Below the pieces are notes generated by a model that ran no database searches, was not told where the DNA came from, and worked only from the letters and a program-made list of their open reading frames with translations. From a virus: a DNA stretch of 62,284 nt. This document shows, piece after piece, positions 2,619 to 10,583 of the stretch. The position numbers were made by a program, and so were the translations under genes. The stretch spans positions 1 to 62,284 of the IMG/VR virus record IMGVR_UViG_2919730853_000001; one strand, written 5' to 3'. How positions within the stretch are numbered: position 1 is the first letter of the stretch; every line of letters starts with the position of its first letter.

Positions 2619-3758
2619 ATGTATACAGTAAATTCATTTTTCTGCGGTGGCGGTGGGTTCGATTTAGGATTCATTAACGCTGGCTTTGAAGTGGTTGGGG
2701 CTTGGGACTTCGACAAATATGCAGTACAATCCTATGCACACAATATCGACACGTTAGTTAAAGAAGCAGACGTTAGTACAATGTCATGGAGAGACTTACG
2801 ACCAGCTTCAGTATGGTTGTTCGGGTTTCCGTGTCAGGATATAAGTATAGCTGGACTGAAAGCAGGAATGATTAAAGGAGAAACTAGAAGTGGTCTTTTC
2901 TATGAAATCATGCGATTGCTGCAAGAAGTTCGAACTGCTACCCCTGGATCTCTTCCTGAAATTATACTTGCCGAAAACGTCAAGGCAGTAAAGAAGTACT
3001 TACCTACGATTGAAGAAGAGTATGCCAAGGTGGGCTACAAGATGTACTACGTTCTGTACAATTCAAAGTATCAAGGTTTAGCCCAAAACAGGGAACGTTA
3101 TTTCATCTTGGGTGTTCGAGAGGATATTAAACAAACGTTTGTTTTTGAAGAACAACAGACTGAATTTGTGCCAAAACTGAAAGACTTTCTAGAAGATCAT
3201 GCCGACGAAAAGTTTTATGTAGAGGATATTAAAGCACTTCATATCATTGAAAAAGCTGAAGAAGGGCTTCGAGTAAAACAGGCTACCAAGAAAGGTTACG
3301 ATGTTGCAGTAGAGGGCGACATGATTAATGTTACCCGTCCTAATAGTAAAACAAGACGTGGCCGCATTGGAAAACAGATAGCACAAACGCTATTAACTGG
3401 TCATGAACAGGTTGTAGTTGAATCGTTACCTACTATCAATGTTCTAGGAATGTTGGACATTAACGGTCATGACAATATTCGTCGTGTCTATGATGTTGAC
3501 GGGTTAAGCCCAACACTCAATACCGGAGGCGGTGGAAATCGCCAACCTAAAATTTTGGACTACGATAGATTAAAGGTAAGGAAATTAACACCGAGAGAAT
3601 TTGCTAGGCTTCAGGGTTTTCCAGAGTCATACCAACAAGTAGTATCTAACGTTCAATTCTATAAGCAGATGGGGAATGCCGTATCTGTTCCTGTAGCTGA
3701 ATTCGTGGCAGGGCAGATTAAACAGTACCTTGAATATTTAGAAATGTGTTCTAATTAA
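2619..3758 (+). CDS. dcm: DNA (cytosine-5)-methyltransferase
   Basis: FCGGGGFDLGF (motif I), FPCQDIS (IV), ENV (VI), QNRERYFILG (VIII), TPREFARLQGFP, GNAVSVPV (X). Confidence 0.9.
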   Translation: MYTVNSFFCGGGGFDLGFINAGFEVVGAWDFDKYAVQSYAHNIDTLVKEADVSTMSWRDLRPASVWLFGFPCQDISIAGLKAGMIKGETRSGLFYEIMRLLQEVRTATPGSLPEIILAENVKAVKKYLPTIEEEYAKVGYKMYYVLYNSKYQGLAQNRERYFILGVREDIKQTFVFEEQQTEFVPKLKDFLEDHADEKFYVEDIKALHIIEKAEEGLRVKQATKKGYDVAVEGDMINVTRPNSKTRRGRIGKQIAQTLLTGHEQVVVESLPTINVLGMLDINGHDNIRRVYDVDGLSPTLNTGGGGNRQPKILDYDRLKVRKLTPREFARLQGFPESYQQVVSNVQFYKQMGNAVSVPVAEFVAGQIKQYLEYLEMCSN

Positions 3759-4561: not shown

Positions 4562-4704
4562 CTAGAGAGGAAAAGATCAAATTTATTATAGATTGTATAT
4601 GGGAAATAGAAGAGGCAGCAGTTGGTCCAGCTTATTTTGAAGACTATACTGATGAACAGTTAGATAAAGAAGTAGTATGGTACGAATATCTGTTAACTAA
4701 GTAG
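4558..4704 (+). CDS. Hypothetical protein (48 aa, acidic)
   Basis: ATGA overlap at 4558-4561. Below the ORF-track cutoff. Confidence 0.4.
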   Translation: MTREEKIKFIIDCIWEIEEAAVGPAYFEDYTDEQLDKEVVWYEYLLTK

Positions 4705-4735
4705 GCGTGGGGCTAGTCCTCACGTCTTTTTTTTT
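4704..4735 (+). terminator. Rho-independent terminator
   Basis: 9-bp stem GGCGTGGGG/CCTCACGTC followed by a T9 run. Confidence 0.7.
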
Positions 4736-4820
4736 ATGCCCGAAAACCTGTATTTGGGCGGTGTTTCTTACACCTTTTAGTAGGACGTTGCATCGGCAAC
4801 AAATTACAGGAGGTGGCACG

Positions 4821-5509
4821 GTGAACCTGAAAGGAAAAGTAAAGGGAAAGTCTTATGAAGAGTGGATTAATCGCCTTCAGGAGATTGACAACTTTCTCGA
4901 TAGAGTAAAAGAAAAAGCACAGCAAGGCAAAGAAATGTCAAGAGAAGTACTAGAACGTGCTGTAATGCTAAAGAAGGAACGGGAACAGTGCGAACGTATC
5001 ACTAGATGTTGGGGCAGTACATTAGAGTACATGTATGAATATTTTTCGCATGACAAGAATCCTGAAAATGAAAATAATTTAATTCCCGAAGGCATAGGCA
5101 TTGAGGACGCACCAGCCTTTCATAGAGAGTTAACGGACTATTTGGATAGCTACCATTCAGACCCTACACAACGCATCGCATGGAGTGTCCCACGAAGCCA
5201 TGCGAAGTCCACATACCTTTCGAATATGTACCCACTGTACAATATTGTCTATAACTTACGGTCATTCATAGTCATAGTGTCTGAAACACAAGACGGTGCT
5301 AAACTGTTCGCTGACTACGTTAACAATCAACTAAAGCACAATGCAAAACTACGTGAAGATTTTGGCGAATTAATGGACGAAACTGGACGGGGAAACATTA
5401 AGGATAATGCAGAGAAGTTTGTAACAAAGAACAATATAATGGTAGCCATTGGTTCAACGCAGAAACAATTGCGAGGCATGAAGTTCCTCAACGCGAGACC
5501 TGACTTGAT
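4821..5509 (+). CDS. terL: Terminase large subunit, exon 1 (ATPase N-terminal part with Walker A)
   Basis: GTG at 4821 follows RBS AGGAGG. Walker A PRSHAKST is at 5190-5213. The frame ends ..RPDLI, then W and a stop, unless it is spliced. Confidence 0.75.
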
Positions 5510-5773
5510 TTGGTAAAACTGGTCACTTTTAGTAGAAATACTAATCGAACATCGGGCAATATCGGTAAACGCTGAAACGCCAATACCGAGATAAGGTAGA
5601 GGAGTAAAGACCTCTACCCATCGTAACGCATAGGTGGTGAAACTGCTTGCAGAATATAACCCACCCAAGAGTGTCCGACACCTAAACGTAAAGTCGTAGG
5701 TGAAAATGTATGCTGAACTATGACGAATACAAGTCATAGAAGTAAGGATAAAAAGCCTTGCGATAACATATTG
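5510..5773 (+). ncRNA. Group I-like self-splicing intron (ORF-less) within terL
   Basis: Removing it restores RPDLIILDDLES (Walker B). It starts after a U, ends in G, and contains multiple hairpins. Confidence 0.6.
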
Positions 5774-6806
5774 CATTTTAGATGATCTCGAATCGGAGAA
5801 GAACACAAACACGCCTGAACTAAGACAGAAGAACCTAACATGGTACACCAAAGTAATTAACCCACTTGGAGACCCACAACGTACCGGTTTCATTTACATG
5901 GGTACATTGGTGAACCCTAATGGACTGCTGCCATATGTAATGCAACGTGCTGATTTCAAAGCGAAAAGATATTCGGCTATCGTTTCCCCACCTGACAACG
6001 TTGAAATGTGGGAAGAGTATGAAAGAATTTATCGTGACGTTGAAGACCCTGACCGTAAAGATAATGCGGAACATTACTACTTTATGAATCAAGAAGAAAT
6101 GGATAAGGGCACGGAAGTATTATGGCAAGACAGAATGCCTTACTACAAACTCATTCAAGAGAAATGTAACGTTGGTACAAGGGCATTCAACAGTGAGTAC
6201 TTGAATCTACCATACAGTGACGAAGACGCTATTTTCAGACAAGAGTACTTCACATTCTATGACGACAAAGACCTGTACGATGATTCAGGGCGAATGATAC
6301 CATTGGAATATTATGGATTTTGGGATGTTGCCATTACAGGTAAGGGAGACTACAACGCTATCATTACACTTGGTAGAGACCGACGCACTGGCATCTTTTA
6401 CGTTGTAGATGCATGGGCGGCAAAGGTCAATGCACATGAGGCACTTAAAATGGCAGAGAATAAAATACTTGAATACAATCATCACACATTTGGAGTTGAA
6501 ACTATTCAGGCACAATGGTCTATGTTTCAACAGTTAAAAGTTAACCTCTCTAAACGTTCGTATTTCAGAACTAGGTTGAAAGCAGTTAACCCACGTACAA
6601 AGAAAGAGATTCGTATTGAGGCACTTGAACCACTTGTAGAAGCAGGACAGATACGTTTTAAACGACAACATAGGTTATTGCTGGAAATGTTGGAATTATT
6701 TCCACAACATGAACACGATGATCTACCCGATGCATTGGCATCTTGTGTAGACATGGCTGGCACACACCGCAAAAGAATGTTTCAAAATAAACCGAAAGGC
6801 TGGTAG
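5774..6806 (+). CDS. terL: Terminase large subunit, exon 2 (Walker B and nuclease domain)
   Basis: The frame is open from 5775 (ILDDLESEKN...) and is the same frame as the 5898..6806 ORF. The C-terminal part is typical of a terminase nuclease domain. Confidence 0.75.
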
Positions 6807-6845
6807 GAAACTACCGGTCTTTTTACTTTATAAGGAGGAAAAGAA

Positions 6846-8396
6846 ATGAATTTGCAAGACCTTTTCGTTAAAGGTGAATATTTCCCTTTGACTGACCATG
6901 AAATGCGTATTCAGAAATACCGACGTAATGAAAAGCTTGCTAGAGGAGATCATGAAGAAGTTTTCCCTGAATCGGCAGAAAAGAACGAAGCGTATCTTTC
7001 AGCCAATTTTTCGGGTTTAATTGTTCGCAAGTCGAGTGATTTTCTTTTTGGTGAAGTACCTACTATTTCAAGTGGTAAAGAATCACAATCACCGGAACAA
7101 AAAGCATTAGACCGTTTCACTGAAGAAAACAAGATGCATCGCCTTAACTATCAGCAAGCACTTATTGCTGCTACAAATGGAGACGCTTTCTACAAGGTAC
7201 GTTACGGTCAAGAGTATAATGGACTGTTCCCTGAAACGGCTGACCCTAAAAGACTTATCATCGAAGCGATTGACCCTAAAAAGGTGTACCCTCAAACGTC
7301 ACCATTCGATAAGTCAAAGATTGTTGTGTATCACGTTGCTGAACCTATCCTTATTGAAGGCACAAGCGATAAGTGGTTACTACATGTTGAATCACACTAT
7401 GCTGGTAAGATTGTTTACCGTCAATTCAAATTAGATATTTTCCGTACTGATAAATTCGGAAACATTCTATTATTCAAAATCGGTGACGAGTTACCGGAAG
7501 GTTACGACGAAGAAGTAACAGGAGTTCCACTTCCATTAGTGGTTCACGTTCCGAACTACAATGACGGTATCGATTGGCACGGGCAAGATGATATTTCAGA
7601 ACACATTAAATTGTTCGATGAAATCAATAACCGTATTTCACAGATAAGTGCAATACTGGACAAACATGCAGACCCTAGCATTGCAGTCCCTTCAGGTCTA
7701 TTACAAGTAGATGGTGATGGAAACACGTACTTCAATGTTGCTGCTAACAAAGTCTTTGAGGTTATGGGTAAAGAGGATATTATTCCTCAGTATATCACTA
7801 ATTCAAATCCACAACTTGCCGAAGCATTCAAGGAGTTAGAAATGCTTATTGAGTTCTTACTATCTACTACTGAAATTCCTCCTGTTGCAGTTGGACTTAA
7901 AGACAGTGGTACAAGTGGAAACTCAGGTCTTTCAATCAAATGGAGAATGAACAGCTTAATTGCAAAAATCAATCGTAAGCGTCAATTCTTTGATGAAGGC
8001 TTAAAGAAAGTGTACCTAATTGCACAGATGCTAGAAGCATATGCAAATCCTAGTATTGTTGACTATGAAGTTACAGTACCACAAATCGGATTCAAAGAAG
8101 GTCTTCCACAGGATGATGATAGCACTGCGTCTCGTATGGCTGTTTTAACGAATGGGAGTCAATTACTATCTCAGAAAACAGCTATCATGCAAGCCTTTGG
8201 TCTTACTGAAGAACAAGCTGAAGCTGAAATGGAACGCATTAAAGAAGAGAGAGAAGCAGCAATGGTTGCTGACCCTTCTGTATTTAATGAAGCTGGTCTT
8301 CCAGAGGATGCACCACAGAACCATGTAGATAACAAACAGAAACAAGAAGAAAAGCCTGGACAAAAAGAGGACAAGAAGAAGGAGGAAGATAAGTAA
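6846..8396 (+). CDS. Portal protein
   Basis: 516 aa, directly after terL. SPP1-type portal size and position, with an acidic/basic C-terminal tail. Confidence 0.8.
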   Translation: MNLQDLFVKGEYFPLTDHEMRIQKYRRNEKLARGDHEEVFPESAEKNEAYLSANFSGLIVRKSSDFLFGEVPTISSGKESQSPEQKALDRFTEENKMHRLNYQQALIAATNGDAFYKVRYGQEYNGLFPETADPKRLIIEAIDPKKVYPQTSPFDKSKIVVYHVAEPILIEGTSDKWLLHVESHYAGKIVYRQFKLDIFRTDKFGNILLFKIGDELPEGYDEEVTGVPLPLVVHVPNYNDGIDWHGQDDISEHIKLFDEINNRISQISAILDKHADPSIAVPSGLLQVDGDGNTYFNVAANKVFEVMGKEDIIPQYITNSNPQLAEAFKELEMLIEFLLSTTEIPPVAVGLKDSGTSGNSGLSIKWRMNSLIAKINRKRQFFDEGLKKVYLIAQMLEAYANPSIVDYEVTVPQIGFKEGLPQDDDSTASRMAVLTNGSQLLSQKTAIMQAFGLTEEQAEAEMERIKEEREAAMVADPSVFNEAGLPEDAPQNHVDNKQKQEEKPGQKEDKKKEEDK

Positions 8397-8771: not shown

Positions 8772-9674
8772 TTGAGTGAGTTTGAAAATACGGATTTTCC
8801 CCAATATGAAAGTGACCCTGAATCATTAGAAGTACTCTATGCTACTGCATGGTTGCTTACTGTGAGGGCGGTATTAAAACTACTTAGCCTTCCTCCATAT
8901 GCTTCTAATACTGTGATGTTACGGCATCAACAAACTGTAATTAATGAGTTATCAAAAATATTCAATGACTTACGAGTGGGTACGGTGAAAACCGTGCCCC
9001 TTTTAATTACAGAGGCTTATACAGAAGGAGTTAAGTATTCCCGTGAAGCTTTAGGGAATGCGGCCCAAGGAGATCAGTTAACCATTACTAACAAAACGAA
9101 GATGGAGAAAATGATTGCTGATACTCAAAGTGACTTACTCAAAGCTACTCATAATACGGAAGAAAACGTGAAGAAACTTGTACGTGCAACAGTAGCTAAA
9201 GAAATGAGTTCCACAGGTGGGCGTACCCTGAAATATTCTAATATGTCAAAACGAGTTCAGGACTCACTTAAAAAGAAGATGCTGCTAGAAGGTATTGAGG
9301 ATGCAAACAAAGCCATCGTAGATAAAGCTGGACGAACTTGGAAACTCAAAACTTATAGTTCGATGGCGGTAAAGACCAAAATGAATTCCGCATATATGAG
9401 TGCGATTCAAGATGAAGCATTAGCAAATGGTTCTGACTTGGCTATTATCTCAACTAAGCCTGACACAGTAGATGCATGTAAAAACTACGAAGGCATGATT
9501 ATCTCATTGAATGGACTAACTGCTGGCTATAAAACGTATGCAGAATTAAAAGCTAGTAAGAACATTTTTCATCCCAATTGCGGGCATTTCTGTCGCCCCG
9601 TTTCTAGTGAGGCAATGATTCCTCCTGCTTACTGGAAGAAACATAAGCAACAAATGGACAAGTTAAATAGTTAA
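8772..9674 (+). CDS. Head morphogenesis protein (SPP1 gp7 / Mu F-like)
   Basis: 300 aa after the portal gene. C-terminal HPNCGHFCRP resembles the HxNCRC signature. Confidence 0.7.
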   Translation: MSEFENTDFPQYESDPESLEVLYATAWLLTVRAVLKLLSLPPYASNTVMLRHQQTVINELSKIFNDLRVGTVKTVPLLITEAYTEGVKYSREALGNAAQGDQLTITNKTKMEKMIADTQSDLLKATHNTEENVKKLVRATVAKEMSSTGGRTLKYSNMSKRVQDSLKKKMLLEGIEDANKAIVDKAGRTWKLKTYSSMAVKTKMNSAYMSAIQDEALANGSDLAIISTKPDTVDACKNYEGMIISLNGLTAGYKTYAELKASKNIFHPNCGHFCRPVSSEAMIPPAYWKKHKQQMDKLNS

Positions 9675-9867: not shown

Positions 9868-9943
9868 TGAAGTATAACTCAGTTGGTAGAGTGACGCACT
9901 GTTAATGCGTTTGTCGCTGGTTCGAATCCAGCTACTTCAGCCA
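9868..9943 (+). tRNA. tRNA-Asn (anticodon GTT) with encoded CCA
   Basis: Manual cloverleaf: acceptor TGAAGTA/TACTTCA, D stem ACTC/GAGT, anticodon stem ACGCA/TGCGT with loop CTGTTAA, T arm GCTGG-TTCGAAT-CCAGC. Confidence 0.85.
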
Positions 9944-10028: not shown

Positions 10029-10583
10029 ATGTTTCAAATGGAAGAAGTAACACAAGCAACACCGGAAGCAGTTGAACCGGAAGTAAAAGAACCGGAAGCA
10101 AAGGCTGACCCGATGATTCCTAAATCACGTTTCGATGAGATCAATAGCAAGTATAAAGAAATGCTTGCAAAGATTGAGGCTTTTGAATCGGCTGACTTAA
10201 AACGTCAAGAAGAAGAAGCAGCACGTGAATTAGAACGCAAAAAAGAACAAGGCAAATTTGAAGAATTGTACCAAAGTTCTCAAAAGGAACTAGAAGCTTT
10301 CAAGAAATATGAAAGCCGTACACAAGAACTTGAATCAGTAATTAATGGAATGGTTGAAACAAAACTCAAATCAATTCCTGAAGATATGGTGGATTTAATT
10401 CCAGCAAACTTATCTGCTGAACAGACATTAGCATGGCTAGATAAAGCCGAGTCTAAAGGACTATTCGGCAAGCCTGAACCTAAAGAAGTTGGAAAACCTT
10501 CGAACAAATCAAACGAAGCACCAAAAATCGATAATGCAAACTTATCGCCTTTGGACAAGATTCTTGCAGGTTTAGGACGTTAA
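10029..10583 (+). CDS. Scaffolding protein
   Basis: Acidic, coiled-coil-rich 184 aa immediately upstream of the capsid gene. An alternative start at ATG 10038 fits the RBS better. Confidence 0.6.
   Translation: MFQMEEVTQATPEAVEPEVKEPEAKADPMIPKSRFDEINSKYKEMLAKIEAFESADLKRQEEEAARELERKKEQGKFEELYQSSQKELEAFKKYESRTQELESVINGMVETKLKSIPEDMVDLIPANLSAEQTLAWLDKAESKGLFGKPEPKEVGKPSNKSNEAPKIDNANLSPLDKILAGLGR

Follow-up and report, generated by a model that had tools for sequence, protein, structure and literature searches.

A probable ORF-less IA-type group I intron in the Walker B codon of a phage terminase gene belongs to a family missed by the Rfam group I model

The window, that is, the whole stretch of DNA analysed here, comprises 62,284 nucleotides of a virus (IMG/VR record IMGVR_UViG_2919730853_000001). 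It carries a terminase large-subunit gene (terL) whose reading frame is broken by 264 nt. The features of the locus are as follows.

4821..5509, + strand: terL exon 1, codons 1-229 plus the AT of codon Ile230 (from the sequence and a PHROG match)
5510..5773, + strand: putative group I intron, 264 nt, ORF-less, with an in-frame TAA at 5514-5516 (from folding and covariation)
5774..6806, + strand: terL exon 2, the C of codon 230, codons 231-573 and the stop, with the Terminase_6C nuclease domain
5774..5809, + strand: remainder of the Walker B motif, (I)ILDDLES, at the start of exon 2; D233, D234 and E236 are kept without exception by 62 relatives

The terL frame starts with GTG at 4821, with AGGAGG 7 nt ahead of it, encodes the Walker A motif PRSHAKST at 5190-5213 within exon 1, and ends in ...NARPDLIW before it closes at the TAA of 5514-5516. 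From 5775 (ILDDLESEKNTNT... / ILDDLESEKNTNTPELRQKNLTWY...) the frame can be read on through to 6806, with zero ATG, GTG or TTG codons ahead of the Met at 5898. When 5510-5773 is taken out, the frame encodes a 573-aa TerL, the junction 5509|5774 builds the codon AT|C of Ile230, and the expected ligated sequence is ...GACTTGAT|CATTTTAGAT. The spliced product has a single match to PHROG 38 (phrog_38, terminase large subunit), spanning residues 8-566. A sequence-only reading of this DNA had given the positions of Walker A (5190-5213), the stop at 5514, the re-opening at 5775 and the junction, all of which agree with the sequence. It had also proposed that joining 5509 to 5774 yields a Walker B motif, and the spliced frame does read RPDLIILDDLES, in agreement with over 100 uninterrupted relatives.

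The spliced TerL retrieved 1027 protein matches at E ≤ 1e-30, which are colinear with the product. The best matches are 574-aa proteins of B. subtilis, B. spizizenii and B. licheniformis, with 84% identity over 100% of the query; these are uninterrupted and named ‘phage terminase large subunit’. Alignments with 13 and with 62 relatives are ungapped at the junction and read RPDL[IV]I.DDLES, and residues R226, P227, D228, D233, D234, L235, E236 and S237 are invariant across the aligned relatives. On a 62-kb contig of Neobacillus niacini, an intron-less terL allele reads AGACCTGACCTCATAATTCTTGATGAT across the site, a codon-for-codon match to the spliced window sequence AGACCTGACTTGAT|CATTTTAGATGAT. 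The alignment of related TerLs across the junction, which had been put forward as a check, has thus returned colinear, ungapped relatives and a continuous empty-site allele. A profile search of genome contigs with the TerL alignment identified five loci, of which four are uninterrupted TerLs and none has the intron, while a search of genome contigs with the single TerL protein returned no matches. The closest TerL relatives lie on contigs of 57-63 kb, several of them labelled ‘plasmid’ (B. subtilis, B. licheniformis), which suggests that the window and these relatives form a family of ~60-kb phage-plasmids or extrachromosomal prophages.

The AlphaFold2 model of the spliced TerL has a mean pLDDT of 88. 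In the model, strand 118-122, the PRSHAKST loop and helix 129-143 form a P-loop arrangement, and strand 229-233 (LIILD) carries the split codon and is followed by D234 and E236. The top Foldseek matches in the PDB are the full-length large terminases of PhiV-1, T4 (gp17), Sf6 (gp2) and D6E. A PDB sequence search with TerL gave 0 matches, and hhalign of the TerL alignment against T4 gp17, aimed at a residue-level mapping of Walker B, gave no meaningful alignment. From the predicted strand 229-233 and the invariant D233, D234 and E236, together with the motif pattern and the fold similarity to solved terminases, the split codon of Ile230 is predicted to lie within the Walker B strand.

An antisense ORF of 188 aa (window positions 5327-5893, - strand) covers the entire intron and both exon edges, and the public Logan assembly lists it as a gene (contig positions 2430-2996). 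This gene call is almost certainly artefactual and due to the gap left by the unrecognised intron. The proper annotation of the locus is a single joined terL CDS (4821..5509, 5774..6806) and not two fragments with a spurious antisense gene between them. An assembly error behind the split terL, which the sequence-only reading had named as a possible refutation, is contradicted: the same arrangement is found on the independent public Logan contig SRR35197096_23 (62,219 nt), and a diverged copy of the insert occupies the same site in another IMG/VR contig, L017. The insert is not an assembly artefact.

The insert has a G+C content of 41%, the same as the exons, and stops in all three + frames. 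A 296-nt stretch with the insert folds at -78.9 kcal/mol, against -59.5 ± 4.0 kcal/mol for shuffled sequences (z = -4.9), and 0 of 200 shuffles folded as well. Rfam cmscan of the entire window at gathering scores found tRNA only and no group I intron (RF00028), and at E ≤ 10 on positions 5400-5900 (501 nt) it again gave no RF00028, the sole hit being a chance snoRNA match. The scan with RF00028, which had been suggested as a check, was negative at both levels. In the same search, all three Twort orf142 introns used as a control were found at 64-101 bits, and RF00028 also misses the relatives of the insert in PJN02 and phiCD211. Because the Twort control succeeded, we read the negative result as a gap in model coverage and not as a property of the RNA. 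Elsewhere in the window, a tRNA-Asn (anticodon GTT) lies at 9868-9943 on the + strand (Rfam 70.9 bits; ARAGORN), inside the head-gene block between a minor-capsid-like ORF at 8772-9674 and an ORF at 10029-10583.

The proposed fold of the insert comprises the following elements.

5506..5525, + strand: P1, exon UGAU 5506-5509 with guide GUCA 5522-5525, U5509.G5522 at the 5' splice site 5509|5510 (sequence, L017)
5515..5521, + strand: candidate P10 guide, short, AAAACUG with exon-2 CAUUUU 5774-5779 (sequence, L017)
5529-5534 / 5539-5544, + strand: P2 with a GAAA loop; both-side changes at 6/6 pairs, 90.8% paired
5552..5558 with 5672-5678, + strand: P3, 5' strand; both-side changes at 6/7 pairs, 94% paired
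5562-5567 / 5584-5589, + strand: P4; 94.6% paired, 5/6 pairs covary
5568-5569 (AA) and 5581-5583 (CAA), + strand: A-rich J4/5 and J5/4 (sequence)
5571-5572 / 5579-5580, + strand: minimal P5 inside P4; 93% paired, a long hairpin in some members
5590-5592 / 5620-5622 and 5595-5602 / 5611-5618, + strand: P6 and P6a (covariation)
5627..5632, + strand: P7, 5' strand, CGCAUA with 5709-5713 and 5715, U5714 bulged; 95% paired
5633-5637 / 5661-5665, apical 5643-5645 / 5650-5652, + strand: P7.1; 98% paired, 4/5 pairs covary
5672..5678, + strand: P3, 3' strand, UGUCCGA, with the conserved J7.1/3 CAAGAG just before it
5679-5684 / 5697-5702, + strand: P8; 6/6 pairs covary, 91.8% paired
5703..5715, + strand: J8/7 and P7 3' strand, AAAAUG and UAUGC-U-G, near-invariant columns
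5718-5724 / 5733-5739, + strand: P9; 99.2% paired, 5/6 tested pairs covary
5742-5747 / 5756-5761, + strand: P9.1; 99.2% paired, 6/6 pairs covary
5762..5773, + strand: 3' tail with omega G, GAUAACAUAUUG; 3' splice site 5773|5774 fixed by protein colinearity

Family members were searched for with nhmmer profiles and the fold was assessed by pair counting. Forty-three distinct ORF-less members were aligned by MAFFT from sequence alone, and the group I model derived from the window sequence was then applied to this alignment. In the P2-P9.1 model with its P3/P7 pseudoknot, 94.2% of cells are paired, compared with 33-42% when the partners are slid by 1-3 columns (n = 43). Changes on both sides occur in 55 of the 64 pairs, and the covariation score is 0.68 versus 0.18 for shuffles, none of which (0/500) equals it. 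When P3 and P7 are written as nested instead of crossing, those helices drop to 31-67% paired, which serves as an internal control for the pseudoknot. P6 and proximal P6a show both-side changes at 9/9 pairs (93.6% paired), and the two apical P6a pairs are just 59% paired in the MAFFT alignment. Invariant or near-invariant columns lie in the joining segments (J3/4, J4/5, J6/7, J8/7) and in P7, and the window intron agrees with the consensus at 78 of 78 columns that are ≥90% conserved in the other members.

P7 is presumed to be the guanosine-binding helix. Its G-C and C-G pairs are invariant in 43/43 members, with a bulged base ahead of the last pair, and two of its pairs show rare compensatory changes (GCGUA/UACGC and GCGCA/UGCGC). 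The internal loop of P7.1, UGAAAC/GAAUAUAA (5638-5642, 5653-5660), and the P9.1 loop (A)UAAAAAG (5748-5755) are almost invariant across the 43 members; both motifs are unpaired and look like tertiary-contact partners. GAUAAC in the 3' tail is conserved family-wide. An additional helix between P7 and P3' is a hallmark of IA-type introns, and P7.1 at this position marks the insert as one of this type. Some features count against the intron reading: the exon portion of P1 is just 4 bp, with a possible extension G5512-C5519; P5 is only 2 bp; and the candidate P10 (C-G, A-U, one mismatch, three U-A) contains the mismatch.

These results bear out what had been claimed for the insert from its letters. 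The five hairpins noticed earlier are real and correspond to P6a, P7.1, P8, P9 and P9.1. The insert had been called ORF-less with a terminal G, and all + frames are closed and G5773 is present. It had been called a group I-like intron, and a P3-P9 core with the P3/P7 pseudoknot is supported by covariation in 43 homologs. The proposed P1-type U.G (TGAT 5506-5509 with GTCA 5522-5525) and the terminal G are backed by compensatory changes in the same-site allele of L017.

The TerL of L017 is 75% (exon 1) and 87% (exon 2) identical to the window TerL, and its intron, 266 nt long and 81% identical, sits in the same codon and phase of terL and ends in ...AAAUUG. P1 is UGUU/GACA in L017 and UGAU/GUCA in the window, so that an A-U pair is replaced by U-A while the U.G at the cleavage site is retained. 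P10 covaries too, with AAU/AUU in L017 versus CA/UG in the window. Nineteen of the first 41 exon-2 codons differ between the window and L017, of which 18 are synonymous and 1 is non-synonymous. The 41 codons that lack a start are thus conserved in the terL frame, and joining to exon 1 is required.

Over 150 relatives of the intron occur in the DNA of phages, plasmids and viral metagenomes. Blastn with the insert matched 69-86 phage records and 19 plasmid records, a scan of IMG/VR for a family motif found at least 120 viral contigs, and the nhmmer family profile gave 157 matches in the retrieved loci. A megablast of 4700-6900 against phages of the GenBank collection gave no match; the element is without a close sequenced phage relative at the DNA level. 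The relatives typically lie inside split essential genes, often with homing endonuclease genes, as in these examples.

RecD-like helicase gene, Bacillus phage PJN02: family intron with ‘mobile intron protein’ and endonuclease ORFs
DNA polymerase gene, Alicyclobacillus phage MMB025: family intron with an endonuclease
TerL gene, Arcanobacterium phage TPWB06: family intron, gene in three pieces
Probable TerL gene, Mammaliicoccus phage phi116: family intron
Tail genes, phiCD211: family intron
TerL gene, B. subtilis plasmid pLS32: family intron with a NUMOD3 endonuclease gene

In pLS32 (B. subtilis natto, NC_015149.1 73462-78583), the gap between the TerL halves is a family member (131.6 bits) with the NUMOD3 endonuclease gene in its P5 loop; its insertion site precedes VFVADE, the Walker B sequence, by a few codons. 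In pLS32 and six similar B. subtilis plasmids of 84-86 kb, TerL is annotated as ‘terminase large subunit’ and ‘terminase TerL endonuclease subunit’, with NUMOD3 between them. On plasmid pG9842_140 of B. cereus G9842 (NC_011774.1 1121-6199), a 3'-domain match at ~2501-2579 stops 2 nt before a CDS for a ‘DEAD/DEAH box helicase’; with the long unannotated gap upstream, this is probably another unrecognised intron-split gene. We rejected this match as the published tape-measure IA1 intron because it adjoins the helicase gene, and for the same reason the IA1 label remains a literature lead.

Several loci carry more than one copy. In phiCD211 (LN681537.2 26122-31367), the family intron (2499-2743) lies directly before an annotated ‘Intron_gpI’ (2770-3035), both between ‘minor tail protein’ and ‘tape measure protein’, and RF00028 finds neither. 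pCD1602_4 and a 240-kb IMG/VR contig each have two family copies, 500-750 nt apart. These three cases suggest that one tail gene can contain several introns, the situation of Twort orf142. The 3' domain (P7'-P9.1) has partial matches in crAss-like phages with Bacteroidota hosts (NC_055894.1, cr6_1; NC_055902.1, cr131_1; MT774392.1, cr128_1), in a Leptolyngbya phage (PP438436.1, cyanophage) and in an Arcanobacterium phage (PQ358086.1, actinobacterial). The family, or its 3' module, therefore extends well beyond Bacillota.

Other explanations of the split gene have to be weighed. The element could be a decayed, non-splicing relic, with terL a pseudogene in a defective prophage or plasmid, as might be argued from the absence of an endonuclease gene, the short P1 and P5, the negative Rfam result and the fact that splicing is a deduction. 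However, every helix is intact and the consensus base stands at all 78 highly conserved columns, while both exons are open and full length, the region behind the intron is under strong purifying selection (the 18 synonymous versus 1 non-synonymous differences from L017), and the guides have changed in step with their exons between the window and L017 alleles. We consider a relic improbable. Still less probable is that TerL consists of two assembling polypeptides, an N-terminal ATPase and a C-terminal fragment, and that the 264 nt are merely a structured spacer. Gene callers and PGAP do annotate such loci as pairs, for example in pLS32, and the Logan contig has two ORFs, but the break falls within the core ATPase β-strand 229-233 and not between domains. 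Moreover, the first start available to the second part lies 41 codons downstream and would remove the invariant DDLES, although those codons are conserved at the protein level; the supposed spacer has a conserved catalytic-intron fold common to elements in unrelated genes; and close TerL relatives are uninterrupted.

That the insert is an element of another kind, namely a group II intron, an intein, an IS element or MITE, or a translational bypass of the T4 gene 60 type, has next to no likelihood. All such elements interrupt reading frames, and nothing specific speaks for any of them. An intein needs an open frame, whereas all frames here are closed; a group II intron would be far larger than 264 nt, and the P3/P7 pseudoknot topology is that of group I; deleting exactly 264 nt restores the frame, which argues against an IS element or MITE; and known translational bypassing spans ~50 nt.

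Together, our results suggest, with a probability of about 0.9, that 5510-5773 is an ORF-less IA-type group I intron in codon Ile230 of the Walker B strand and that it is spliced out. What is established here is where exactly the exons meet, that the group I architecture is conserved and covaries, and that the insert belongs to a large family of elements which interrupt genes. Catalysis and in vivo splicing we infer from the sequence, in the following model. The terL transcript would fold into the P1-P9.1 core, and P7 would bind an external guanosine that attacks the phosphate after U5509, which is held as U.G in P1, and the freed 3'-OH of exon 1 would then attack after G5773, with exon 2 positioned by the short P10. 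The ligated mRNA would encode the 573-aa TerL. Since the TAA sits 5 nt into the intron, unspliced RNA would yield a 231-aa fragment only, without Walker B and the nuclease domain.

The intron occupies this site in the window and in L017, and it is absent from 120 full-length TerL relatives among the matches listed and from four genome loci. This patchy occurrence, in two of many related TerL alleles, fits gain by homing or recombination. No homing endonuclease gene lies inside the intron, where all frames are closed, and Pfam found none in the three ORFs upstream of terL. The route of arrival can be inferred in outline: the intron probably arrived by homing or recombination with an endonuclease from a relative, and the endonuclease gene was then lost or never present.

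It is tempting to go further and to propose that the family is a distinct, unmodelled group I subgroup and, in addition, that the ORF-less terL copy is not a neutral passenger but has been kept since conditional splicing gates the packaging ATPase late in infection. The putative subgroup would be marked by P7 GCAUA/UAUGC, a single long P7.1 with the invariant GAAUAUAA internal loop and the invariant P9.1 loop AUAAAAAG. Such a subgroup would have spread through Bacillota phages and reached crAss-like phages, an Arcanobacterium phage and a cyanophage. We regard this combined proposal as a long shot.

What is known of group I intron biology is unchanged by the window case. Its wider meaning is that RF00028 misses a large phage and plasmid clade of group I introns, and that this unrecognised clade leaves terminase, DNA polymerase, helicase and tape measure genes annotated as split or as ‘hypothetical’, for example in pLS32-type plasmids. 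A covariance model built from the 43-member alignment would correct many such annotations.

Among described introns, the annotated TerL intron of Lactobacillus phage JCL1032 (NC_019456.1 127-5190; intron ~2340-2571) belongs to the window family. It is a full-length match to the family profile (nhmmer 93 bits, E 3e-29), is likewise ORF-less, ~250 nt long and located in an ATPase motif of terL, and its CDS is annotated as joined. The two differ in that JCL1032 has a TerL of an unrelated lineage with the insertion site in Walker A (...LIFMGRKNG|K), ~30% of the core positions are different, and P7.1 and P8 are shorter in JCL1032.

The introns of Staphylococcus phage Twort orf142 (type IA2; crystal structure 1Y0Q) share the helix order, the length of ~250 nt and the lack of an ORF. 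Their 3' domain clearly resembles that of the window intron, with CUGAAC-P9-GAAG-P9.1-...GUAACAUAAUUG in Twort and CUGAAC-P9-GAAG-P9.1-GAUAACAUAUUG in the window. In contrast, Twort has the classic P7 GACUA/UAGUC with P7.1 and P7.2 and is detected by RF00028, whereas the window family has P7 GCAUA/UAUGC with a single long P7.1 and its conserved GAAUAUAA loop and is invisible to RF00028. Twort matches the window family profile at E 0.006-0.2, which is not significant.

Group I introns named term-IVS1, term-IVS2 and TMP-IVS3 have been described in prophages of the B. cereus group, with term-IVS1 and TMP-IVS3 classed as IA1 (Tourasse & Kolsto 2008, PMC2504315). Like the window intron, they are phage-borne, interrupt Bacillus terminase or tape-measure genes in frame and have an early stop codon; an early in-frame stop is typical of Bacillus phage introns (PMC2504315). 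In that group, changes in P1 direct one common core to different insertion sites. Unlike the window intron, term-IVS1 has a homing endonuclease gene, and the two are likened by description and not by sequence. JCL1032 is listed as a BLASTN relative of term-IVS1 (PMC2504315), and the literature on these two introns suggests that the window family may be of type IA1.

Group I introns are a common type of element in phages of Gram-positive bacteria, and reports of such introns in terL go back to 1995; the window intron is a new, unannotated member of this known kind. According to its citation in PMC4299906, the terL intron of phage LL-H (Mikkonen & Alatossava 1995) was the first described in a phage terminase gene, and Moonbeam also has a terminase group I intron (PMC4299906). 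LL-H presents the same biological situation as the window, in that a phage terminase gene is split by a group I intron. Because LL-H is missing from the blastn relatives of both the window intron and the JCL1032 intron, its intron is probably of a different lineage.

In Bastillevirinae, which are Bacillus phages, group I introns occur in terL and pol, several per gene, with splicing verified by sequencing (NAR 2025, PMC11878797). These introns differ from ours in that they mostly carry HNH or other endonuclease genes and average ~800 nt. According to the same study, neither the Rfam model nor GISSD covers phage introns completely (PMC11878797), with which the negative RF00028 result here agrees. 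Within TerL, members of the window family have their insertion site in Walker A in JCL1032, a short way ahead of Walker B in pLS32 and within Walker B in the window. The ATPase motifs of TerL thus seem to be recurrent landing sites of this intron family, and the window case is a further example of introns in the most conserved catalytic motifs of TerL.
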